64,000 bases of DNA from a bacterium (GTDB lineage: Bacteria; UBP6; UBA1177), in NCBI GenBank assembly GCA_017963125.1, contig JAGCUA010000030.1, positions 21,513 to 85,512 on the forward strand, written 5' to 3'. The translations under genes were made by a program, and so were the position numbers. Position 1 is the stretch's first letter. Every line of letters starts with the position of its first letter. The notes beneath the pieces were generated by a model. That model was given only the letters and a program-made list of their open reading frames with translations, was not told the DNA's origin and did no database searches. This document shows positions 3,498-61,783 of the stretch, in pieces.

Positions 3498-4589
3498 CTA
3501 TCTGTTGTCGCGGAAAACATCTTCAGGAAGAGACATTTTCATGTCTGACCACATGAAAGCCTTTTCCATGCACATGTAAAGCGGCGGTTCCGCTTTGAAA
3601 AACCGCGAAATGCGTTCATTGAAAGCAGTATAGAACCTGCGGCGGATAAAAGCTAAATAGCGCAGTTTATTGTCACTGTCAGAGGGGAACATTTCGCCGC
3701 GAAGAAGCAGACTCTTCGGATTGCGCTCGATGATCGTTTCGGTAAGAGCAAGCGTGTGACGGAAGCCTCCCATGCTGATCCATGCGATTTTTTCAGGGTC
3801 AAGACGCGAAAAAATGGAATCTATGAGCTGCATATATTCATCAAAAAGTTCATCCAGCATAAGCACGGGATCAAAGTGTATCGCAACTTTCACCCCTGCA
3901 GTCTGAAGCCGCTGCGCTGCGGCCATCCGCTCTTCCAGTGTTGCCGTTCCGGGCTCTTCACAAGAGCTGAACCGCGGAATATTCACAGAAAATCCAGTGA
4001 CAATATTGGAATCAGGATAAAGCTCCTTCACTTCAAGCAGACGTTCGACTTCGGCAGATTTGGTTTTGAACTCGAACTGTACTCTGTCAAAAAGCGAGCG
4101 TTTCGACAACTCTCCGATAAAAAATCCGCTTTCGTCAAGAAGATGGTCAAGCGCTAAAGAATCGGCCAGTTCCCCTGTTCCGACGCGGAGGAAACGGTTT
4201 TCAGAAAGGAAATCTACTATTTCCTCTATAACTTTTTCCTTATTCAAAAAAACGGTTATGAAAGGATTGTTGCCGATGTAGTGCTGAAGAATACAGTAGG
4301 AGCAGTCATAAGGGCAGCCTGTGACGCTGTTTATCGTGTAGTAGTTGCAGCAGACAACGCCTTTGCTGCCGGGACATTTTTTGAGGAAACGCCCTTTGTT
4401 TTCGGTGAAAAAAAGCACTTTTTTGGCAGTTTTGAAAAGATCTTCCCCGGGATTCCGCCTGATTTCGTCAAAAAGTTCCTCTTTCGTCATAAATTCAGGC
4501 TTCAAACCCAGATTTTCCGCGATTTTATGAGGAAGCTCGGCATTTCCGAACTCGGGATCTATCACTATTTTTTTTATTTCAGGCCGCAT
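3498..4589 (-). CDS. Spore photoproduct lyase-like radical SAM protein
   Basis: CPG...CCNYY, GCPYDCSYC (CxxxCxxC), GTGELADSL, FKTKS, HFDP, YMCME motifs typical of SplB-like proteins. Confidence 0.8.
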   Translation of the reverse strand: MRPEIKKIVIDPEFGNAELPHKIAENLGLKPEFMTKEELFDEIRRNPGEDLFKTAKKVLFFTENKGRFLKKCPGSKGVVCCNYYTINSVTGCPYDCSYCILQHYIGNNPFITVFLNKEKVIEEIVDFLSENRFLRVGTGELADSLALDHLLDESGFFIGELSKRSLFDRVQFEFKTKSAEVERLLEVKELYPDSNIVTGFSVNIPRFSSCEEPGTATLEERMAAAQRLQTAGVKVAIHFDPVLMLDELFDEYMQLIDSIFSRLDPEKIAWISMGGFRHTLALTETIIERNPKSLLLRGEMFPSDSDNKLRYLAFIRRRFYTAFNERISRFFKAEPPLYMCMEKAFMWSDMKMSLPEDVFRDNR

Positions 4590-20375: not shown

Positions 20376-21611
20376 TTGAAATACTCTCTTATACTCCGAA
20401 ACATTTCTGAAATTTTTACCGCTACAACTTTATCTCCGGTTTTAAAAGGTTCATCTCTTCTTATTGCAGCTGACGAAGAGGGAAAAATCTGCTTTGCCGG
20501 AGAAAACGCGGATTTCAGAAAAACGGAACCCGGTTTCGAAACAAAATTCAAGGAAGTTATTGTCGATGCCGGAAACAAAGCAGTTTTCCCGGGTCTTGTC
20601 GACAGTCACACGCATCTTGTTTTCGCGGCGACACGCGAGGACGAGTTCGCGATGAAATCGAGAGGTGCTACCTACGAGGAAATCGCAGCGGCTGGCGGCG
20701 GAATAATCAACAGCACCCTGAAAACGAAAAAAGCGTCGCTTGAAGAGATTGTCGAACAGGCTTCAAAACGCCTTTCGCAGCTTGTTTCCTACGGCGTGAC
20801 GACGGTCGAAATCAAATCGGGCTACGGTTTAGACACCGAAAGCGAACTCAAACTGCTCACAGCGATTTCCGAACTCAAAAAACGTTTCCCGATCGAAATA
20901 GTTTCGACTTTCCTCGGCGCTCACGCTTATCCGCCCGAATTCAAAAACGACCACGAAGGCTACATCAGCCTCATAAACAACGAGATGCTGCCTGAAATAA
21001 AGGCCCGCAACCTTGCCGAATTCGCCGATGTTTTCTGCGAAGAAGGCTATTTTTCGCTCAAAGAGACCGAAAAACTTATGCTCAGAGCGAAAGAACTCGG
21101 TTTTGGGTTAAAACTTCACGCGGACGAATTCCACTCTCTCGGCGGAACAGAACTCGCAGCCGAAATGGGAGCGGCATCCGTTGACCATCTCGAGGCGATA
21201 AGCGACGAAGGGATCAGAAAACTTGCAGAAAACGGCGTTGTCGCAGGCGTTCTGCCAATAACTTCCGTTTTTTCGAGGCTTCCGTTCGCTCCGGCGCGCA
21301 AAATGCTTGAAAACGGCGTAACTGTCGCTTTAGCTACCGACATGAACCCAGGAAGCTGCATGTGCGGATTTTTACCGCTTGCAGCAAGTCTCGGCGCAAC
21401 GCAGCTCCGTCTCAGCGTAGAAGACTCACTCAAAGGAATCACAATAAACGGCGCAAAATCTCTGAAAAGAGACAAGACCAAAGGCTCCATCGAAACCGGC
21501 AAGGACGCAGACCTCGTCATCATGGATTCACCGAGCGTCTCATATCCGATTTACCACTTCGCGCACAACCACTGCAAAAAAGTGTTCGTCAAAGGAAAAC
21601 AGATCCTCTGA
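20376..21611 (+). CDS. hutI: Imidazolonepropionase
   Basis: PGLVDSHTH, YEEIAAAGGGI, EIKSGYGL, FLGAH, DVFCE, LHADE, DHLE, TDMNPGS. Confidence 0.95.
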   Translation: MKYSLILRNISEIFTATTLSPVLKGSSLLIAADEEGKICFAGENADFRKTEPGFETKFKEVIVDAGNKAVFPGLVDSHTHLVFAATREDEFAMKSRGATYEEIAAAGGGIINSTLKTKKASLEEIVEQASKRLSQLVSYGVTTVEIKSGYGLDTESELKLLTAISELKKRFPIEIVSTFLGAHAYPPEFKNDHEGYISLINNEMLPEIKARNLAEFADVFCEEGYFSLKETEKLMLRAKELGFGLKLHADEFHSLGGTELAAEMGAASVDHLEAISDEGIRKLAENGVVAGVLPITSVFSRLPFAPARKMLENGVTVALATDMNPGSCMCGFLPLAASLGATQLRLSVEDSLKGITINGAKSLKRDKTKGSIETGKDADLVIMDSPSVSYPIYHFAHNHCKKVFVKGKQIL

Positions 21612-21651
21612 TAACCGATTTTTTCAAAAAATCTCCGAAATCAGAATCTCT

Positions 21652-21747
21652 AAATTTCGGGGGATTACATAAAATCGCAAAAAAAATTTTGGGGGATTAC
21701 ACGAAATCTCAAAAAAAATTTGCGGGGATTTTAGAAACATGCTATTT
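21652..21747 (+). repeat. Three direct repeats, 32-bp period, upstream of AAA_14/DUF4143 gene 1
   Basis: GGGGATT core at 21660, 21692 and 21724; units 1 and 2 are 28/32 identical; followed by TGCTATTT at 21740. Confidence 0.85.
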
Positions 21748-21772
21748 TGTCAATGATTTTAGGAGGTGTTGC

Positions 21773-23104
21773 ATGAGCAAGGTTTTTAAACGCAAATTAT
21801 ATGAAAGACTTCTTAAATGGAAAAATGAGCGACAGGGACGAACTGCAATATTGGTTGAAGGTGCAAGACGTGTCGGAAAATCTACATTGGTGGAAGAGTT
21901 CGCCAGAAACGAATATCAAAACTATATTTTAATTGATTTCAACAAAGCTCTGAAGGAGACAATCGCGCTTTTTGATGATCTGACCGATCTCGATTTTATA
22001 TTTACGGCCCTGCAGAATACCTACAATGTTCAGCTCGTCGAGCGGAAATCGCTGATAATTTTCGATGAAGTGCAGAAGTGCCCGAGGGCGCGGCAGGCAA
22101 TCAAATATCTCGTTGCCGACGGCAGATACGATTACATCGAAACAGGTTCGCTTGTCAGCATCCGCAAAAACACGCAGGATATCACTATCCCGAGCGAGGA
22201 AGAGCGCGTGACGATGTATCCGATGGATCATGAAGAGTTCCGCTGGGCTCTTGACGACGAAGTTTCAATACCGCTTTTGAAAATATCCTACGACAAAAAA
22301 ATTCCGCTTGGGGCGGCTCATCGCAAAAAAATGCGCGATTTCAGGCTTTACATGCTTGTCGGGGGTATGCCGCAGGCGGTTGACACTTATCTGCGGACGA
22401 AAAATTTCAAGGCTGTCGACGATACGAAGCGCGATATCATCCGCCTTTACGAAGAAGATTTCCGCAAAATCGACCCAACAGGAAAAATCGGACAGCTTTT
22501 CATGGATATTCCAGCCCAGCTTTACCGCTCCGCAGGAAGATTCGTTGCTTTCAACAGTATCGGCGGAGTTTCCGAAGATAAAAAAGCGGAACTTTTACAG
22601 GCGCTTTCAGAAAGCAAAACCACACTTTTCTGCTACCACTGCACCGATCCGAATGTCGGAATGTCGCTTTCGAAAGATCTTAACCGCTACAAAATTTTTC
22701 TTGCAGACACAGGTCTCTTCGTGACGCTCTGCTTCTGGGACAAGGATTACACAGAAAACGTGATTTACGACAAGCTGCTCAGTGACAAACTCGATGCCAA
22801 TTTAGGCTACATCTATGAAAACATGGTGGCACAGATGCTTGCAACCGCCGGGAACAGACTTTTTTATTACACTTTTCCGAAAGACGAAAAACACAGCTAT
22901 GAAATTGATTTTCTACTGTCGCGCGGCAACAAACTCTGCCCGATAGAAGTCAAATCTTCAGGCTACAAAACGCACAAATCATTGGACGCATTCTGCGAAA
23001 AATTCTCGTCCCGCATCGGCTGCAGATACCTGATTTACGCAAAAGATCTGGTCAAAGACGGTGAAACCACCTGCCTGCCGGTATATTTCACCCCGTTTTT
23101 ATGA
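21773..23104 (+). CDS. AAA_14 ATPase with DUF4143 (PD-(D/E)XK-like) C-terminal domain
   Basis: GARRVGKS, IFDEVQ, VGGMP, LADTGL, YENMV, EIDF, PIEVKS; AGGAGG RBS before ATG 21773. Confidence 0.9.
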   Translation: MSKVFKRKLYERLLKWKNERQGRTAILVEGARRVGKSTLVEEFARNEYQNYILIDFNKALKETIALFDDLTDLDFIFTALQNTYNVQLVERKSLIIFDEVQKCPRARQAIKYLVADGRYDYIETGSLVSIRKNTQDITIPSEEERVTMYPMDHEEFRWALDDEVSIPLLKISYDKKIPLGAAHRKKMRDFRLYMLVGGMPQAVDTYLRTKNFKAVDDTKRDIIRLYEEDFRKIDPTGKIGQLFMDIPAQLYRSAGRFVAFNSIGGVSEDKKAELLQALSESKTTLFCYHCTDPNVGMSLSKDLNRYKIFLADTGLFVTLCFWDKDYTENVIYDKLLSDKLDANLGYIYENMVAQMLATAGNRLFYYTFPKDEKHSYEIDFLLSRGNKLCPIEVKSSGYKTHKSLDAFCEKFSSRIGCRYLIYAKDLVKDGETTCLPVYFTPFL

Positions 23105-23110
23105 TAATTC

Positions 23111-23138
23111 TTGCCAACCCGTATAAAATACCTATAAT
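23111..23138 (+). promoter_or_regulatory. sigma70-like promoter
   Basis: TTGCCA, 16-bp spacer, TATAAT. Confidence 0.55.
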
Positions 23139-23197
23139 TTTGCGGTTTTTTGTTTAAAAACCAAATTGTTTTTTTGATGATAAATCTGGAGCTCAAA

Positions 23198-24157
23198 ATG
23201 AAAAAACTTTCGCTCGTTTTGATTATTTTGTGTGCATTTTTCAAAATATTCGCCGATGATGACGACAAACTCCGGCTCGCCGTTATGGAATTTGAAGACA
23301 GAAGCGGTACTTTGTCTAAACAGCTTCTTTCCGATGCGACTGAATATCTCCGCAGTGCACTGACAAGCGCAAACAAATACACGGTCATCGCAAAAGAACG
23401 GCAGGAACAGGCAATGATAAAGGAGATGAAGAAGGAATCCTACAAAGAATGTAACGACAAAAACTGCCAGATTCCGCTCGGTCAGGCTCTTTCAGCAGAC
23501 ACAATTTTGCGGACAACAATCATGCGTTTAGGCAAAACTTTTGTAATCGCATCCGAGCTTATTGACCTTACAAAAGAGGCAACAATTGTCGGTGCGCGTG
23601 AGAAATATGACGGCTCAGAAGAATCGCTCAGCATCGCTCTTGACAATATCGCCGAAAAGGTTATCGCGGCTTATGAATCAATTTATAATTCAGATAGTTC
23701 GACAAACGATAATTATGAGCGTAAAGAGAACAACAGCTACTCGAATTCAAACAACTATTCCAATAATTACCAGCCGACCAGTAACTATAACGGGGATGCC
23801 GACCGCGACGAAAAAAGAGCTCTGGCTGAAGCTCAGGAAAACCTCGAATACAACAGAAAAATAAAAATAGCAGGTTACAGCATGCTTGGGATAGGTGCCG
23901 GCATTGTTCTAATCGGTGGAATACTTTTCGGTGTAAGTGCTCCTTCTTATGATCCATCTGCAGGAAAAGATGACAACGAGGGGTTAGTTAATGGCGGCTT
24001 AACAATGATTTGCATAGGTTCCGGAGTAATCGTAACAGGTGTAATCATGGCACCGATCGGAGCTGTCAGAGAGAAAAAAGCAAGAATCGAACTCAACACT
24101 CTTGCTGTAGCTCCGACAAAAGGCGGTGCTTATGCGTCGGTAGGTTTCAGTTTTTAG
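23198..24157 (+). CDS. Exported protein: CsgG/TolB-N-like domain, Asn/Ser/Tyr linker, Gly-rich hydrophobic hairpin, aromatic C-terminus
   Basis: Signal peptide MKKLSL...; LAVMEFED...C..KNCQIPLGQALSAD; ends GGAYASVGFSF. Confidence 0.55.
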   Translation: MKKLSLVLIILCAFFKIFADDDDKLRLAVMEFEDRSGTLSKQLLSDATEYLRSALTSANKYTVIAKERQEQAMIKEMKKESYKECNDKNCQIPLGQALSADTILRTTIMRLGKTFVIASELIDLTKEATIVGAREKYDGSEESLSIALDNIAEKVIAAYESIYNSDSSTNDNYERKENNSYSNSNNYSNNYQPTSNYNGDADRDEKRALAEAQENLEYNRKIKIAGYSMLGIGAGIVLIGGILFGVSAPSYDPSAGKDDNEGLVNGGLTMICIGSGVIVTGVIMAPIGAVREKKARIELNTLAVAPTKGGAYASVGFSF

Positions 24158-24330
24158 ATTTTCACAAATTCCCCAGAATTTCTTGAATCCACGATGAATC
24201 CATGATTTCGAAAGCAAAACATTTTTTGCCAAGATCCTTGAGAGATGCGCCACCTTAAATCATCATATCCTTGCAATAAAATTTTTTAAAAATATAAGGT
24301 TGCGGGTGTTTTTTTGTAATCGGAGGAGAA

Positions 24331-55363: not shown

Positions 55364-55433
55364 TATTTTATTGAATTCATTTTCAAAATTCCTAAAATAT
55401 AACGTTTTTTATTTGTTGTCACAGGAGATCGTC

Positions 55434-58400
55434 ATGAAAAAACTCCTTCTTTTACTTATCACTCTGATATTTTTGGCCGTTTCGTGCAGCAGCTCGAAAA
55501 AGGCGGAAAATGATGCAGATATTCTGCCGGATGAAGACGAAATCAATGACGAAGATGCAGTTGAGCCGGATGAAGATGAAGAAGCGGATGACGAGAAAGA
55601 AAATGATGAAGATGAAGAAGAAATTGATGACGGAAATCCGTGCAATCTTATTGAAAATTCCGACGGCAAATATACCGGCGTCTCAAATGAAGAATTCAAA
55701 TGCGGCTGCAACGAAGGTTACTTCTGGGCCAATCCCGGTTGCAAAAAGACGACTTACGCAAATATCTGCACCGGTCAGGAGTACTGTTGCGACAATTCTG
55801 GAGTGATCGACTGTCCGAAACCCGGAGAAGATTACTACGGGCAGGATCCGCAGTATGCGGCTCTCGGATACTGCACAAACAGCAGTTTTAAAATCGACAA
55901 ATCTGTTAAAAACGAGGAAACGGTCAAGGACGAGAATCTTAAAATCGAATGGATGAGAACAAGCACGGAATCGACATATACATGGGAAGAAGCAGTCGAA
56001 TACTGCGAAGATCTGGAATACGGAGGGCATGACGACTGGCGTCTTCCGAATCCTAAAGAGATGCTTTTCTCAACTTTGTCTCCCAAAATGCTTGATACCG
56101 ACAGGAACTTTTGGAGCGGAACACCTAAGCATTCTGACAGTACCAGCGCATGGGTGCTTTATAACAACGGGGAAGACATAACCGTCAGGACATGGTCAAA
56201 AACGAGCTCGCTTTATGTCCGCTGCGTAAGGGAAGAAGCTCCGTCAGAACCCGTGTTCAAGGTTTTTGAAATAGCCGGAGATAAAATAGTTCGTGATATG
56301 GACAGCGGTCTTGCATGGATAGAAAAACCCGTAAAAGCCTCATCGTGGAAGGACTCGCTTGCCTACTGCGAGAACCTTGACTATGCCGGATTTTCAGACT
56401 GGAGAATTCCCAATATACACGAACTTATCTCGATTACGGATCACAGGAAATCAAATCCGGCGACAGCTTTTCCGGATGCGGACAGCAGTTTTGCCAAAGA
56501 TATGATTTCATCTACGACATACCGCTATACATGGGGAGATTTCAGCAAGTCATTCAAAAACATCTCATTTGATACAGGAAGAAACGACAGAGCACTGAAA
56601 CAAGAGGATACCGGTTTTTACTATTATGCGCTGTGTGTCCGAAACGAACCGTGCAGAGAACATTACTGGTGGAACGGAGAAAAATGCCTCAAAGATCCCT
56701 GCAAAAACGAACCCTGCAGAAACGCCGAACATTCAAACAAAATGTGCAACAACATCAATTTTAACGATTATTCATGCGAATGTGATGAAAACTACTTCTG
56801 GGACGGCCAAAAGTGCGTTTCTCCGTGCGAATCGAATCCGTGCGAAAACGACAAAAATTCAGACAAAGTCTGCACTGCTCATGATACAGAGCAGTACTCA
56901 TGCGGATGTGCCGACAGCTTTTACTGGAACGGGGAGAAGTGCACTTCTCCGTGCGAGTCGAATCCGTGCATAGAAGACAAGCATTCAAACGGATCGTGCA
57001 TAGTTTCAGCTATCGACATGTACGAATGCGGCTGCATCGACGGATACTTGTGGAACGGCGTCAAGTGCGTCGATCCGTGTGCCGGCATCAACTGCGGAGA
57101 TTTTGAACATGCAGCGGGGACATGCAAACCGGACAACGCCGTTATTTTCAGATGCGATTGCGAGGAAGGATATTACTGGTGGGGCAATAAAAAACAGTGT
57201 CTCGCAAAGAAACCTGCTTCTGCAAATGTCTGCACAGGTCAGAACAAGTGTTACGACAACAAAAAAGAGATCCCCTGCCCTGCCGAAAACGAGAATTTTT
57301 TCGGCCAGGATGCCAACTATGCAAGGCTTGGATACTGCATTCCTCAGAGTTTTTCTATCGATAATTCAGTCGAAAACGAGCCTGTCGTAGTTGACAACAA
57401 TACCGGAAATATATGGCAGAGAAATATCCCCCCGCTTGAAACTCTTTATAGTGAAGATGTCAGCAAATACTGCGAAGATCTCAATTACGGCGGTTATGAC
57501 GACTGGACACTGCCGAGCGTAGAAGATTTTATGACTATTGCCGATTACGGCAGATACAATCCGGCCATCAAAACCGAATATTTTCCCGACTATAAAAATT
57601 TCTGGACCTCTTCCGGCAGTTCAAGCGGTTCTGGAGGAGGTATTGACAATCACGGTTATTATTCGGTCTACGGCTATACTGCAATATTTGATTTCACGGA
57701 ACCTTCCACATCTTACGTACAGACATATTATTACGACAATTACAGCACGGGCGTTGACACTTACTATGCATACGCATTCAACATCCGCTGTCTACGCAGA
57801 AACAGTGTCACAATTCCTCCGCGCTATTTCACTTCAAAAACTTTCGGCAGCAGCGTGACGTGGAACAACTACAACGATCTTATCTTTGCGGAAAAAACGG
57901 GAAACGAACTTTCGTGGTCTGAAGCTATGAAATACTGCTCTGAACTTGATTATGCCGGGATATCGGACTGGAGACTGCCGAATGTGAAAGAGCTCTTTTT
58001 CAATTCGAAACGCGGTTTCCACTCATCGACGACGGCACTCTCTGACATAAATTACGACTATTCATCCAAAACAGAAGGCTATGTAGTCTACCAGCACTCG
58101 AAAGAAAGCCGGCTGACCGGCACTTTCTGCGTAGCGAACGACCCGTGTGAAAACGGATTGTTCTGGAACGGTGAAAAATGTGCGAAAAATCCGTGTGTAA
58201 AAGATCCGTGCAAATATGACACCAATTCCGACAGGATATGCACCGTTTTGGATGAAGAAAACTATTCATGCAACTGCAACAAGAACTACAAATGGAGCCC
58301 AGAAAAACTGCAATGCGTCCGCACTTGTCAGGACAATCCGTGCAGCTCTTATTCAAACAGCGACAAACAGTGCTATGATGACGATGTCGAAGGATTCTAC

Positions 58401-58736
58401 TGCGGCTGCAACGAGCCTTATTTCTGGAATGTGAACAGCCGCAAATGCACAAGGAACTGCGCTGAAGACATTTGTATCGATGAAACAAACAGCGACGGAA
58501 TGTGCTATAACGATGAGACCGAGGGTTATGTCTGCGGTTGCATCGACGGATATGCCTGGGTGCCGGGATCTTCATGCAGGGTTGACAACTGCACTCCGAA
58601 TCCGTGCGAAAATCTTGAAAATTCCGACGGGACGTGCACGGTCACATACTCTTCTTATAGATGCGGATGCAATGAAGATTACACATGGAATTCTTTAGAA
58701 CTAGCCTGCGTGGATGCGGACGGCTGGGTAGAATAA
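55434..58736 (+). CDS. EGF-like repeat / DUF1566 (Lcl C-terminal-like) lipoprotein, four DUF1566-like domains
   Basis: LAVSC lipobox; acidic linker; WRLPN.KE-type motif four times; many C.C..GY.W..C EGF-like units; ATG 55434. Confidence 0.85.
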   Translation: MKKLLLLLITLIFLAVSCSSSKKAENDADILPDEDEINDEDAVEPDEDEEADDEKENDEDEEEIDDGNPCNLIENSDGKYTGVSNEEFKCGCNEGYFWANPGCKKTTYANICTGQEYCCDNSGVIDCPKPGEDYYGQDPQYAALGYCTNSSFKIDKSVKNEETVKDENLKIEWMRTSTESTYTWEEAVEYCEDLEYGGHDDWRLPNPKEMLFSTLSPKMLDTDRNFWSGTPKHSDSTSAWVLYNNGEDITVRTWSKTSSLYVRCVREEAPSEPVFKVFEIAGDKIVRDMDSGLAWIEKPVKASSWKDSLAYCENLDYAGFSDWRIPNIHELISITDHRKSNPATAFPDADSSFAKDMISSTTYRYTWGDFSKSFKNISFDTGRNDRALKQEDTGFYYYALCVRNEPCREHYWWNGEKCLKDPCKNEPCRNAEHSNKMCNNINFNDYSCECDENYFWDGQKCVSPCESNPCENDKNSDKVCTAHDTEQYSCGCADSFYWNGEKCTSPCESNPCIEDKHSNGSCIVSAIDMYECGCIDGYLWNGVKCVDPCAGINCGDFEHAAGTCKPDNAVIFRCDCEEGYYWWGNKKQCLAKKPASANVCTGQNKCYDNKKEIPCPAENENFFGQDANYARLGYCIPQSFSIDNSVENEPVVVDNNTGNIWQRNIPPLETLYSEDVSKYCEDLNYGGYDDWTLPSVEDFMTIADYGRYNPAIKTEYFPDYKNFWTSSGSSSGSGGGIDNHGYYSVYGYTAIFDFTEPSTSYVQTYYYDNYSTGVDTYYAYAFNIRCLRRNSVTIPPRYFTSKTFGSSVTWNNYNDLIFAEKTGNELSWSEAMKYCSELDYAGISDWRLPNVKELFFNSKRGFHSSTTALSDINYDYSSKTEGYVVYQHSKESRLTGTFCVANDPCENGLFWNGEKCAKNPCVKDPCKYDTNSDRICTVLDEENYSCNCNKNYKWSPEKLQCVRTCQDNPCSSYSNSDKQCYDDDVEGFYCGCNEPYFWNVNSRKCTRNCAEDICIDETNSDGMCYNDETEGYVCGCIDGYAWVPGSSCRVDNCTPNPCENLENSDGTCTVTYSSYRCGCNEDYTWNSLELACVDADGWVE

Positions 58737-58746
58737 GAGGTATAAC

Positions 58747-58794
58747 ATGAAAAAACTCCTTTTTCTTACTGCTCATTTATTGAAAAACCGTTAA
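58747..58794 (+). pseudogene. Truncated 5' remnant of a lipoprotein paralog (MKKLLFLTAHLLKNR*)
   Basis: GAGG RBS; first 15 nt ATGAAAAAACTCCTT are identical to the start of the 55434 gene; the frame runs into the repeat array and stops. Confidence 0.55.
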
Positions 58795-58871
58795 ATTTTG
58801 TCGAAAAATTCATGGAAAACCGTTAAATTTTTCAAAAATTTTCTTGGAAAACCGTTAATTCCGTGCTATTT
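58781..58871 (+). repeat. Three direct repeats, 32-bp period, upstream of AAA_14/DUF4143 gene 2
   Basis: AAAACCGTTAA core at 58784, 58816 and 58848; followed by TGCTATTT at 58864. Confidence 0.85.
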
Positions 58872-58916
58872 CAACTGTGATTTCAGCTCTTTTTACTTTT
58901 TAGGGAGGACAGGTTC

Positions 58917-60272
58917 ATGTTAGTCAGGAAAATAGAAAAAATTCTGGAGAAATTTTTCGATAAAAAAAACAGAAAAGCGCTGCTTGTTACAGGGGCGCGT
59001 CAGGTCGGAAAAACTTACACGATCGAACATTTTGCAAAAGAACATTTCAAACACTACGTGAAAATAAACTTTATCGAAAACAAAGAGGCTGTTTCGATTT
59101 TCGAGAATGTTTCCGATGCTAAAGAGCTGCTTCTGCGCATTTCGGTCTTTGCCGGGAAGGATCTCGTTCCGAACGAAACAGTTGTGTTTTTTGACGAAGT
59201 TCAGGAGTGCCGTGAAATTGCGACAGCGGTGAAATTTCTCGTCGAAGAAGGAAGTTTCCGCTACATTCTGAGCGGCTCGCTTCTCGGTGTTGATCTCAAG
59301 GATATCCGCTCGGTTCCTGTCGGATATATGGACATAATTGAGATGTATCCGCTCGATTTTGAGGAGTTTTTGACAGCGAACGGTGTTTCAAAAAGGGTTT
59401 TTGATGCTCTGCGCGATGCATTCGAAAACAAAACACCTGTTGATCCGGTGGTTCACCGCAAACTTATGGAGTTCTTCCGGCTTTATCTCGTTGTCGGCGG
59501 GATGCCTGCTGTCGTGCAGAAGTATCTCGACACAAACAACATTGCGGAAGTTGTTGACGAGCAGAAAAGTATCGTCACGCTCTATAAAAAGGACATTGCA
59601 AAATACGACCCGGCAAACAAGCTTTATCTTGAAGATATTTTTGAACTTATTCCGAGCGAACTGAATGCGAAAAACAAGCGGTTTTTATTGAAAAGCCTTA
59701 ATGAAAACCAGCGTTTTTCAAGATTCGCAAACAGTTTCCTCTGGCTTAAGGATGCGGGTGTCGCGCTTCCTGTTTTTTGTGTCAGCGAGCCGAAAACACC
59801 GCTTCTTCTTGCAAAAACCACAAATCTCTTCAAACTTTTTCTGGCTGACACCGGGCTTCTCGCGAGTATGTATATGAACGGCATTCAGCGGAAAATCCTT
59901 GCCAACGAGCTCGATATCAATTTTGGCTCGGTATATGAAAACGTCGCGGCGCAGGAACTCAAAGCTCACGGTTTCGATCTCTATTATTTCAACAGCAAAA
60001 AGCAGGGAGAACTTGATTTTGTAATCGAACAGAACGGTGAAATCGTGCCGGTAGAGATAAAATCGGGCAAAGACTACGCAAAACACGCCGCCCTCAGCAA
60101 TGTGTGCAAAAATCCTGATTACGGAATCAGAAACGCCTTTGTTTTCTACAACGGCAATGTGGAGCAGAACGGAAAAATAACATATTATCCCGTTTACATG
60201 CTGATGTTTGTCAAAAATGCAGAAATCGACAAAAACTTCGTTTACAAAATCGATTCGGATGTTTTGAAGTAA
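58917..60272 (+). CDS. AAA_14 ATPase with DUF4143 (PD-(D/E)XK-like) C-terminal domain
   Basis: GARQVGKT, FFDEVQ, VGGMP, LADTGL, YENV, ELDFV, PVEIKS. Confidence 0.9.
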   Translation: MLVRKIEKILEKFFDKKNRKALLVTGARQVGKTYTIEHFAKEHFKHYVKINFIENKEAVSIFENVSDAKELLLRISVFAGKDLVPNETVVFFDEVQECREIATAVKFLVEEGSFRYILSGSLLGVDLKDIRSVPVGYMDIIEMYPLDFEEFLTANGVSKRVFDALRDAFENKTPVDPVVHRKLMEFFRLYLVVGGMPAVVQKYLDTNNIAEVVDEQKSIVTLYKKDIAKYDPANKLYLEDIFELIPSELNAKNKRFLLKSLNENQRFSRFANSFLWLKDAGVALPVFCVSEPKTPLLLAKTTNLFKLFLADTGLLASMYMNGIQRKILANELDINFGSVYENVAAQELKAHGFDLYYFNSKKQGELDFVIEQNGEIVPVEIKSGKDYAKHAALSNVCKNPDYGIRNAFVFYNGNVEQNGKITYYPVYMLMFVKNAEIDKNFVYKIDSDVLK

Positions 60273-60286
60273 AAAACTATCCTTTT

Positions 60287-60423
60287 TTTTCAAAATTCCT
60301 AAAATATAACGTTTTTTATTTGTCTCTGCCGGAGGTTTCAGTGAAAAAACTCCTTCTTTTGCTTATCACTCTGATATTTTTCGCTGTTTCGTGCAGCAGC
60401 TCGAAAAAAGCGGAAAATGATGA
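60287..60423 (+). repeat. Duplicate of the promoter and signal-peptide region at 55380-55514
   Basis: 37-bp identical block ttttcaaaattcctaaaatataacgttttttatttgt (55380-55416 = 60287-60323), plus a near-identical signal peptide coding sequence. Confidence 0.85.
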
Positions 60424-61783
60424 CAATGCTGTTCTGCTGGATGAGGATGCTGTCGATGTTGACGAAGACAATGAAGACGGTATTGCTGATGACGATGAGA
60501 TTGAAGATATCGATCCATGTGAACCAAATCCATGCGAAAATCTTGCAAACAGTGACGGAATATGCAGCAGAAAAGAGAATAGCGGCTTTGAGTGCGGCTG
60601 TGCCAAAGGTTATTTCTGGGGGCATTCAGGATGTAAAAAAATAATCCTGCCGCATATCTGCACCGGTCAGACTAAATGCTACGACATGGAAAAAGAGATC
60701 GAATGTCCGGCAAAAGGAGAGGAGTTTTACGGTCAGGATGCGCACTATGCCGCACTCGGATACTGTCTTCCGCAGAGTTTCACGATCAGGGTTTCAGATA
60801 AAGGCGAAAAAACAGTCGTTGACAACAACACCGGGCTTGAGTGGCAGCAGGAATTCAAGCCTGCCGCAATGATTTCGATGGACGAGGCCTACTACTACTG
60901 TGAATATCTGAATTACGGAGGTCATCAAGACTGGAGAATTCCGACCTTAACAGAACTTTCGACGATCCTGCACTACGACAACAGCCCGACAATAGACCTG
61001 GAATACTTTCCTGATACGTCGCCTGATAAGTTCTGGACATCATCAGATTTCACCTCAAGCTATCAGGTGCGCTACCAAAGCATCATAGATTTTGAAAAAG
61101 CCGACAAATCCTCAGTGTGGCAATCCGATTTTGTTGAACCTCCATATCCTGTTGCGACATCAGTCCGATGTGTGCGAGGTGAAACTTTCGAAACTGAAAT
61201 CAAAGCAAACTTCATGATTGAGTTAGAGGAAGAGAGTTTTCAAGGAAATCCTACTACAAATCTGATCTGGAAACAGGTTATCGGTAATTTTGACAATTCG
61301 TTTTCGTGGGCTGCCCGCCTGAAATACTGCGAAGATCTCGATTTTATCGGGATTTCGGAGTGGAGACTTGCGAATGTCCGCGAGCTTGAGACAATAACCG
61401 CCGACGAAGTACATTTCTATTCCGGTTCTTCTTCAACAACGTACGCATGGAGTCCCGAGGAACATTTCGGGGTAACTTCATATAAAGACGACCGTTATCT
61501 TAATTATGTCTGCATAACGGAAAATCCGTGCGCCGAGGACAAAATCTGGAACGGTGAAAAATGCGTTGAAAACCTGTGCCTGCCGAATCCGTGCGAAGAG
61601 TCGGAATCTTCGACAGACACGTGTATTTTCAATTTAAACGGAAAACGCAGTTGCTATTGTAACTACGGATACTCATGGGACAGCGCATCAAAAAGATGTG
61701 TTAAGGATGAAATACCGGATGAAACTTCTGACGCAGATACGGCAGAAACTCCTGATTCCGACAATTCAGAAAATGGAGAATAA
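60341..61783 (+). CDS. EGF-like / DUF1566 lipoprotein, two DUF1566-like domains
   Basis: GTG start after GGAGG; FAVSC lipobox; CTGQ.KCYD, FYGQDA, DNNTGLEWQ, WRIPT, WRLAN. Confidence 0.85.
   Translation: MKKLLLLLITLIFFAVSCSSSKKAENDDNAVLLDEDAVDVDEDNEDGIADDDEIEDIDPCEPNPCENLANSDGICSRKENSGFECGCAKGYFWGHSGCKKIILPHICTGQTKCYDMEKEIECPAKGEEFYGQDAHYAALGYCLPQSFTIRVSDKGEKTVVDNNTGLEWQQEFKPAAMISMDEAYYYCEYLNYGGHQDWRIPTLTELSTILHYDNSPTIDLEYFPDTSPDKFWTSSDFTSSYQVRYQSIIDFEKADKSSVWQSDFVEPPYPVATSVRCVRGETFETEIKANFMIELEEESFQGNPTTNLIWKQVIGNFDNSFSWAARLKYCEDLDFIGISEWRLANVRELETITADEVHFYSGSSSTTYAWSPEEHFGVTSYKDDRYLNYVCITENPCAEDKIWNGEKCVENLCLPNPCEESESSTDTCIFNLNGKRSCYCNYGYSWDSASKRCVKDEIPDETSDADTAETPDSDNSENGE

Follow-up and report, generated by a model that had tools for sequence, protein, structure and literature searches.

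Private arrays of phased direct repeats upstream of AAA_14/DUF4143 genes in a UBP6 bacterium, and their possible role as operators

We describe a recurrent arrangement of direct repeats in front of genes for AAA_14/DUF4143 proteins, encountered in a stretch of 64,000 nucleotides (nt) from a bacterium of the UBP6 lineage UBA1177 (contig JAGCUA010000030.1 of assembly GCA_017963125.1; this whole stretch is called the window below). Two such genes lie in the window, here called gene 1 and gene 2, and each is preceded by three repeat cores with a period of 32 bp, or three helical turns. Most of the related genes in the genome have repeats of their own, each of a different sequence, and the occurrence of phased arrays before DUF4143 genes is not due to chance. 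We will argue that the arrays may be private operators, similar to plasmid iterons, which would be bound by the ATPase-nuclease encoded in the same cassette and would give negative autoregulation. We put the probability of this reading at roughly 0.55.

Both proteins are full-length members of PDC-S01 (AAA_14, PF13173, plus DUF4143, PF13635; COG1373), a family that is very common and yet uncharacterised. A table in PMC3424549 lists the function of AAA_14/DUF4143 (COG1373) as 'Unknown'. The available excerpts of PMC12988326 place PDC-S01 fourth in frequency among the defence candidates of prokaryotes and state that most PDCs await validation; according to those of PMC13356809, no other single locus is as frequent in rumen genomes. 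The source preprint (10.1101/2024.01.29.577857) presents 145 PDCs as untested candidates; its accessible text catalogues PDC-S01 as a single-gene candidate with no mention of upstream repeats, and the term 'direct repeat' does not occur in it. The literature accessible on DUF4143, COG1373 and PDC-S01 likewise does not describe upstream arrays. The phased private arrays track the gene family across phyla.

Phased arrays in the window and in the genome

A survey of all 64 kb with Tandem Repeats Finder (TRF) gave two arrays of period 32 and no others, at 21652-21730 (2.5 copies, 87% matches, no indels) and at 58784-58858 (2.3 copies, 88% matches). When the units are placed in register by a repeat search, 21652-21683 and 21684-21715 are 88% identical before gene 1, and 58781-58812 and 58813-58844 are 75% identical before gene 2. 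The two complete units of gene 1 read AAATTTCGGGGGATTACATAAAATCGCAAAAA and AAATTTTGGGGGATTACACGAAATCTCAAAAA; the third unit is partial in both arrays and consists of the core only. Within the cores, GGGGATT starts at 21660, 21692 and 21724 in the array of gene 1, and AAACCGTTAA starts at 58785, 58817 and 58849 in that of gene 2. The core sequences of the two genes are unrelated to each other. After each array comes the same box, TGCTATTT, at 21740-21747 and 58864-58871. An earlier note on this DNA had described three cores before gene 1, followed by this box and the ribosome-binding site, and it was right also in the coordinates; what it said of gene 2, namely the same period and box with an unrelated core, is borne out by direct reading and by TRF. 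The features are collected in Table 1.

Table 1. Positions of the repeat arrays, putative promoter elements, genes and bracketing repeat (window numbering)
Feature	Position	Strand	Description
Array of gene 1	21652..21733	+	three direct cores at 32-bp spacing: AAATTTCGGGGGATTACA 21652-21669, AAATTTTGGGGGATTACA 21684-21701, AAATTTGCGGGGATTTTA 21716-21733; A/T-rich spacers between
Putative promoter of gene 1	21720..21748	+	-35-like TTGCGG 21720-21725 inside core 3; 17-nt spacer; extended -10 TGCTATTTT 21740-21748
Ribosome-binding site of gene 1	21761..21766	+	AGGAGG
Gene 1	21773..23104	+	443 aa, ATG at 21773; AAA_14 ATPase 24-156, DUF4143 228-396; PADLOC PDC-S01
Short direct repeat bracketing the gene 2 cassette	58748..58764 and 60342-60358	+	17 nt, 94% identical
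Array of gene 2	58781..58858	+	three direct cores TG(A/G)AAAACCGTTAA, 32-bp period: 58781-58794, 58813-58826, 58845-58858
Putative promoter of gene 2	58844..58872	+	-35-like TTGGAA 58844-58849 overlapping core 3; extended -10 TGCTATTTC 58864-58872
Ribosome-binding site of gene 2	58903..58908	+	GGGAGG
Gene 2	58917..60272	+	451 aa, ATG at 58917; AAA_14 18-152, DUF4143 224-384; PADLOC PDC-S01

The genome (a 2.76-Mb assembly of 93 contigs, 45% G+C) has 23 matches to DUF4143, all of them open and spread over 18 contigs. In the 300 nt upstream of these genes, most have two to four direct repeats of their own, different in sequence from gene to gene. Among the 201 arrays of period 18-50 that TRF finds genome-wide, 15 lie within 350 nt upstream of a DUF4143 gene, and 12 of these have a period of 32 or 33 (the others 23, 40 and 42). 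Taken from the other side, 12 of the 25 arrays of period 31-34 in the genome stand before DUF4143 genes.

The enrichment was quantified by counting genes with at least four exact 8-mer pairs at a spacing of 32-34 nt within 250 nt upstream; crude gene calls served as the background. Such phased repeats precede 14 of the 23 DUF4143 genes and 9 of 2138 other genes (Fisher p = 1.2e-24), which corresponds to an odds ratio of about 370-fold. A lag-autocorrelation score of at least 0.70 is reached by 12 of the 23 and by 35 of 1981 others (p = 7e-15). The nine background genes comprise two divergent neighbours that share the intergenic region of a DUF4143 gene, two orphan arrays, one coding repeat and four that are unexplained. 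Triplets of 32 bp are thus rare before unrelated genes, a point on which the idea of the earlier note could have failed, and four of the nine cases are traceable to DUF4143 arrays.

When the 23 proteins are placed in a maximum-likelihood tree, both window genes fall into a clade of 14 paralogs with support 100/100, and the top repeat distance is 32, 33 or 66 in 13 of these 14, the exception being C42. One of the 13, C50+2742, is atypical in that its 33-bp repeat, which is found 165 nt upstream, represents a flanking repeat in tandem copy. The flanks of this C50 gene carry a direct repeat of ~46 nt at about 2565-2615 and 4071-4120, the left copy of which is tandemly triplicated with a 33-bp period.

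Conservation, privacy and joint inheritance of array and gene

With a 10-sequence alignment of the gene 1/gene 2 clade as query, a scan of one genome per prokaryotic species returned 80 loci that are 43-73% identical to gene 1. According to the record titles, they belong to Bacteroidales/Prevotella/Segatella, Lachnospiraceae/Oscillospiraceae/Clostridia, Fibrobacter, Treponema/Spirochaetota/Sphaerochaetaceae, Eggerthellaceae, Flexilinea, Peptococcus and others. A usable start is present in 78 of them. TRF detects an upstream array at 42 of the 78, with a period of exactly 33 in 34 cases and of 34 in two; for periods of 32-34 the count is 37 loci, and a further 35 have exact 8-mers at 32-34 nt. 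Phasing at 32-34 nt is therefore found at 72 of the 78 loci, in at least five phyla. The upstream windows of these loci contain 36 arrays of period 33-34 in 22,776 nt, and the remainder of the same loci contains 4 arrays of period 32-33 in 292,303 nt. Exact 8-mer pairs at 33/34 nt account for 601+34 of 965 pairs in the 37 TRF-positive loci and for 246+34 of 453 in the 41 TRF-negative ones, 35 of which have at least one 8-mer at 32-34 nt.

A replicate in IMG/VR (95 confirmed relatives, 79 loci kept, 63 distinct upstream regions) has 32-34 or 64-67 nt as the top distance in 42 of the 63 regions. Of 596 8-mer pairs, 302 are at 33 nt and 102 at 66 nt, while control windows 750-1000 nt upstream give 76 pairs and no such peak. 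The proposal that homologues would share the period is confirmed by both sets, where it stands far above background. Among the analysed paralogs of three named genomes, the top distance is 32-33 in 9 of 17 in Segatella copri G8, 2 of 9 in Ihubacter and 1 of 2 in Peptococcus simiae.

When the arrays are printed in register, each unit is seen to consist of a core of ~14-22 nt, identical or nearly so between units, and a spacer that differs. In a run-count test on 38 pooled arrays (11 arrays were left out), which is the test we rely on, the variable columns are clustered, with 320 run boundaries for 470.6 expected (z = -11.6; 0 of 5000 shuffles). A longest-run test is weaker, with p<0.05 in 3 of 15 arrays and a combined p = 2.6e-4. 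The arrays terminate in a core-only unit. The copy number is 1.9-2.8 in 27 of the 36 arrays of period 33-34, which mostly means three cores, and 3.3-3.8, meaning four, in the other 9. Related cores have the same orientation towards the gene and resemble each other clade by clade, as in the ATTTCGGGG-type and the TTTCGTGTAAA-type.

The cores are private. At one mismatch or less in the 2.76 Mb, the core of gene 2 has three copies in its array and one elsewhere, that of gene 1 two and one, that of C61 four and one, and that of C70 three and one. Beyond these single chance-level matches, no regulon of extra core copies was found genome-wide, and phased pairs of the gene 1 or gene 2 core in IMG/VR number 0 each (exact patterns only). 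The combination that the earlier note had emphasised, a conserved geometry with a paralog-specific sequence, is supported: the cores differ between paralogs, the spacing is kept, and the four cores counted are nearly absent from the rest of the genome.

According to a comparison with 14 other genomes of the genus, array and gene form a single unit that is transferred as a whole. Upstream of gene 1 lies an amidohydrolase gene, 76-94% conserved up to its stop at 21611. Beyond this point, four sister genomes have an empty site with 14-16 nt in place of 21612-24269, a slot that here holds gene 1 and a gene for a 319-aa protein with a signal peptide. An orthologue of gene 1 in G022 lies at another locus, with 81% identity over exactly 21652-23085 and unrelated flanks. 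The cores of gene 1 are at 0/32/64 also in this orthologue and in a remnant in G007. Similarly, five genomes share the block of gene 2 (about 58780 to about 60270) at 77-93% identity; the spacing of its cores is 0/32/64 in all six full copies (five orthologues and gene 2 itself) and in one remnant, and 0/32 in two further remnants. Between sister genomes, the stretch of homology at these different loci extends from the first repeat unit to the stop codon, which agrees with the earlier suggestion of a self-contained cassette. As to the slot itself, at least four other genomes have different inserts there, behind which the final 112-322 nt of the amidohydrolase gene are present a second time. 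At the G022 locus (L144), the gene 1 orthologue stands head to head with another DUF4143 gene, and the GGGTTATAACC-type repeat motif of this neighbour is found again immediately downstream of the orthologue.

Decayed copies are also present. Those of gene 2 in G007 (L159) and G006 (L160) keep the array and the last codons of the open reading frame, that in G004 (L161) keeps two units, and that of gene 1 in G007 (L162) keeps the array and the 3' part. These four cassettes have internal deletions, and the last part of the reading frame is kept in three of them. Two orphan sets of 33-bp arrays in the present genome, C85:28089-28172 and C86:87014-87170, stand before genes for small Cys-rich secreted proteins. 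In sister genomes, the arrays homologous to them (on C86, to the one at ~87100-87170) stand immediately before full-length DUF4143 genes (by blastx for L168, L172, L176, L177 and L179, by coordinates only for G004 and G010). The C86 set consists of two abutting arrays about 1.5 kb past the end of the window.

The encoded protein, the promoter and a proposed mechanism

The proteins of gene 1 and gene 2 are 32% identical. AAA_14 scores 86.3 and 97.5 bits, respectively (gathering cut-off 27), and DUF4143 63.3 and 103.3 bits (cut-off 28.1). These are the two Pfam families above cut-off, with weak matches to UPF0102 and AAA_16 below it; a Rep-family initiator was found in neither protein, and no NCBIfam family was assigned to them. 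The PADLOC matches to PDC-S01 are full-length, PDLC04786 over residues 5-440 of gene 1 (E 5.7e-96) and PDLC04792 over residues 1-446 of gene 2 (E 1.9e-197). Across the 23 paralogs, G30, R32, G35 and K36 of Walker A are nearly invariant, D98 and E99 of Walker B are invariant, and E377 and D379 of the PD-(D/E)XK motif are nearly invariant; E392-x-K394 is invariant in the 10-sequence alignment. Both window genes have the Walker A/B and PD-(D/E)XK residues.

A sequence search of the PDB gave 0 matches. The fold was compared through an AlphaFold2 model of the gene 1 protein, built from the 10-sequence alignment (mean pLDDT 85.8, pTM 0.87). The best fold matches are the uncharacterised archaeal AAA+ ATPases 2qen (Z 16.2, 270 residues, root-mean-square deviation (rmsd) 5.0) and 2fna (Z 15.4), followed by the STAND proteins CED-4 (Z 15.0), plant NLRs and Avs5, and later by DNA-bound ORC/Cdc6 chains (2qby_B, Z 11.2, rmsd 9.5). 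The whole model was compared, and the matches span its residues 1 to about 309-396 (to about 309-346 for 2qen and 2qby_B). The matched archaeal chains presumably end in a winged helix. The order of strands and helices in residues 342-443 of the model is that of a PD-(D/E)XK nuclease. The protein is thus probably an ORC/STAND-like AAA+ ATPase with a helical, probably winged-helix part and a PD-(D/E)XK nuclease domain.

Promoters of this genome are of the TTGACA/TATAAT type, with a peak of TATAAT 40-50 nt before start codons. The box TGCTATTT(T/C) is best read as a putative extended -10 promoter element: it provides gene 1 with TATTTT and a preceding TG, 30 nt before the ATG, and the corresponding element of gene 2 lies 50 nt before the ATG. 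The orthologues of gene 2 have TGATATTTT or TGCTATTTT at this place. We had also considered the box as a binding site for a protein, and this was rejected because the orthologues vary there as a -10 element would.

The cores of both window genes, and of most Bacillota relatives, lie upstream of the presumed -10. In 5 of 12 arrays of the genome, on the other hand, only 10-25 nt separate the end of the last core from the start codon, which places this core over the leader or the ribosome-binding site, and in some Bacteroidota relatives (L093, L129) a TAnnTTTG motif is located upstream of the whole array. Cores that lie on and downstream of the promoters would fit repression by occlusion, not activation from upstream.

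On this basis we propose the following mechanism. A cassette would consist of a private array, a promoter and one open reading frame, the array being a row of three (elsewhere up to four) head-to-tail predicted binding sites for the cassette's own protein. Protomers would dock on the cores, which face the same side of the DNA at intervals of three helical turns, and their assembly would be cooperative. Since the promoter-proximal core overlaps the putative -35 and spacer, or in other paralogs the 5' leader and the ribosome-binding site, occupancy of the array would shut the promoter and result in negative autoregulation, and the different cores would insulate the 14 paralogs of the clade from each other. 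The encoded protein is the putative binder because no other product moves along with the array. The operator or iteron reading is the most economical one that we can offer, as the cores differ within one cell, outlast the drift of the spacers and move with the gene across phyla. The earlier note had offered three roles for the arrays, namely autoregulation, self-recognition in defence and cis ends for mobility. Autoregulation fits best, since many arrays lie on or downstream of the presumed promoter, and mobility ends find little support, as inverted repeats were not found and the 3' end is devoid of an array.

The proposed arrangement resembles several known systems. In the iterons of theta plasmids (pPS10, R6K, RK2, P1), a Rep initiator binds adjoining repeats and represses its own promoter. 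The likeness lies in direct head-to-tail repeats with a conserved core, fixed helical phasing, a position beside the gene and element-specific sequences. The cassette protein, however, is an AAA+/nuclease fusion that matches no Rep family, the period is 32-33 bp instead of about 22 bp, with 3-4 copies, and the genome has 23 chromosomal copies between ordinary genes. No sign of an origin turned up, although no search was aimed at origin features. A plasmid-type origin was set aside because of the many chromosomal copies and the lack of a Rep protein.

The archaeal Orc1/Cdc6 proteins (PDB 2qby, 2v1u) share with the cassette protein an AAA+ module, probably joined in both to a helical or winged-helix part of similar fold, and they too are sequence-specific AAA+ proteins encoded beside repeated sites, binding being predicted in the present case. 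Archaeal ORB elements are inverted around an unwinding element, whereas the cassette repeats are direct and lie on a putative promoter; the cassette protein also adds a C-terminal PD-(D/E)XK nuclease, and in structure it comes closer to the archaeal ATPases 2qen and 2fna and to the STAND proteins. At the dnaA promoter, DnaA boxes are like-oriented sites for an ATP-dependent, oligomerising self-repressor. The cassettes have in common with such phased operators that several like-oriented sites lie on the gene's own, here putative, promoter, with self-repression proposed here; they differ in that the site is a different one for each paralog, the spacing is strictly kept at 32-33 bp and the rest of the genome is practically free of the sites.

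It is necessary to consider a number of observations that weigh against this reading or narrow its reach. First, a strict sigma-70 consensus scan calls no promoter at either window array, and the overlap of core 3 with the -35 is for this reason an inference that depends on the assigned extended -10. Second, sites 32-33 bp apart are separated by about 110 Å, so that protomers would touch only if the DNA is bent or if more than one protomer sits on each site. Third, the phased-array trait is not family-wide. The second clade of the tree, with 9 paralogs, has repeat distances of 23, 40 or 73, or none that is clear; among the 28 best-scoring DUF4143 loci of the window's order, a 33-bp array is found in 0 of 19 C50-type and in 2 of 6 C60-type genes; and C42-type genes on viral contigs have no array. 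Conversely, noncoding arrays of 32-34 bp exist away from DUF4143 genes, at C67:35890-35991, at C77:2900-2978, on C70 near 50603 and on C81 near 916. Finally, the similarity of cores follows that of the proteins only loosely. Over 68 gene/array pairs, the Spearman coefficient is 0.16 for the ATPase, 0.23 for the lid, 0.20 for the winged-helix-like part and 0.18 for the nuclease; the bootstrap intervals of the domains overlap, and neither sliding windows nor the domain-wise comparison reveals a focal 'reading head'. Another covariation run gave r = 0.29 overall. Because the covariation is weak and non-focal, we do not claim a residue-to-base form of the protein-site co-evolution that the earlier note had suggested.

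The phased, gene-specific array gives PDC-S01 a testable property, namely a predicted sequence-specific recognition of DNA by an ORC/STAND-like ATPase-nuclease. The arrays are a ready ligand for biochemistry and structure determination and, as predicted, a natural set of orthogonal protein/operator pairs, and they may explain how 10-24 paralogs coexist in one small genome. A more far-reaching proposal is doubtful, and we put it forward as speculation. The private core could be the DNA address of its protein; PDC-S01 would be a collection of ATPase-nucleases programmed by sequence, of which this genome would have 14 with mutually orthogonal specificities, each assembling on three or four sites of like orientation at intervals of three helical turns. 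The copy at the own promoter would then be a throttle and also a mark by which the cassette is recognised, copied or moved, and foreign DNA with phased sites would be the target. If this were true, the specificity of such a protein could be read off from the array in front of its gene, and this for a 'defence' family that is among the most abundant uncharacterised ones of prokaryotes.

Alternative readings and minor observations

The alternative that survives best, unlikely as we consider it, is that the array is a docking or sensing platform. The ATPase-nuclease would be parked on its own locus as an inactive oligomer, as a self decoy or for licensing, an infection signal would release or activate it, and the effect on transcription would be secondary. 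The geometry, the privacy of the cores and the co-transfer of array and gene apply equally to this case. STAND and ORC/Cdc6 proteins, the fold class in question, work by ligand- or DNA-triggered oligomerisation, and the nuclease and Walker residues are kept in nearly all of the 23 paralogs. The family is also listed as a phage-defence candidate in the available text of PMC12988326, but there and in the accessible part of the source preprint (10.1101/2024.01.29.577857) the defence role of PDC-S01 is itself only that of a candidate. Phased pairs of the gene 1 and gene 2 cores are missing from IMG/VR (exact patterns only), and nothing in the data separates such a platform from simple autoregulation.

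Somewhat less likely again is that the array is a cis site for mobility, that is, an end or attachment site at which the cassette would be cut out, copied or inserted by its own nuclease. The moving block starts exactly at the first unit, gene 1 is part of an insert that is absent from four sister genomes, and relatives at 57-73% identity are found in different phyla and on contigs of the viral database. The orphan arrays exist without a gene, and the decayed copies keep the array, three of them (L159, L160, L162) together with the 3' end; remnants can be detected only through what they retain, however, and the impression that the ends are kept is hence biased. The array is at one end only, no matching inverted copy of the core was found, and a search for terminal inverted repeats around the cassettes gave short A/T-rich chance pairs only. 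The insert with gene 1 has no target-site duplication and carries a second gene, and a regulatory site would in any case be inherited with its gene.

Short direct repeats do bracket the cassettes of gene 2 (17 nt) and C50 (~46 nt), but they vary from site to site and lie outside the arrays. At gene 2, the left copy is the start of a signal-peptide reading frame, ATGAAAAAACTCCTT..., and the right copy is the start of the downstream gene for an Lcl_C-domain protein. The left copy (58747-58794) is a stub of 15 codons, with its end within the first repeat unit; the region of the right copy is 60341-60374, and in a sister genome the left copy matches the right one over about 31 nt. These repeats may be an insertion scar or may result from recombination within the paralogous secreted-protein family.

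We regard it as improbable that the arrays are a generic promoter architecture, in which a host factor, the bends of phased A-tracts or mere slippage would account for the repeats and the encoded protein would not be their reader. The spacers are A/T-rich, with A-tracts beside the cores that could bend DNA, and the few arrays of similar period before unrelated genes (on C67, C77, C70 and C81) would be expected in this case. On the other hand, paralogs of one and the same cell have different cores, the core is conserved within an array while the spacers drift, the arrays travel with the gene between phyla that have different host factors and promoters, and the odds ratio at the DUF4143 family is about 370-fold. 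Two of the apparent exceptions are, moreover, orphan arrays of lost DUF4143 genes.

Least probable is an RNA-level element in the mRNA 5' leader, for instance a set of sites for the encoded protein or for ribosome access: the 5 of 12 arrays with a last core 10-25 nt before the start codon would suit it, as would the arrays of L093 and L129, which would be transcribed because the TAnnTTTG promoter motif precedes them, but the cores are upstream of the presumed -10 in both window genes and in most Bacillota relatives, and helical phasing, here of three turns, pertains to duplex DNA.

A few minor observations may be added. The neighbours of the two genes in the window are ordinary genes (an amidohydrolase, a CoA-enzyme activase, Lcl_C proteins). 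The Lcl_C-domain proteins around gene 2 (55371-58736 and 60341-61783) are Cys-rich secreted proteins with near-identical signal-peptide starts, of which there are many copies per genome. The array at C67:35890-35991 precedes two paralogous secreted proteins. Paralogs of the second clade have arrays of other periods, on C93 (period 23, 4 copies), on C70 (period 40) and at C10:45012-45094 (period 42).

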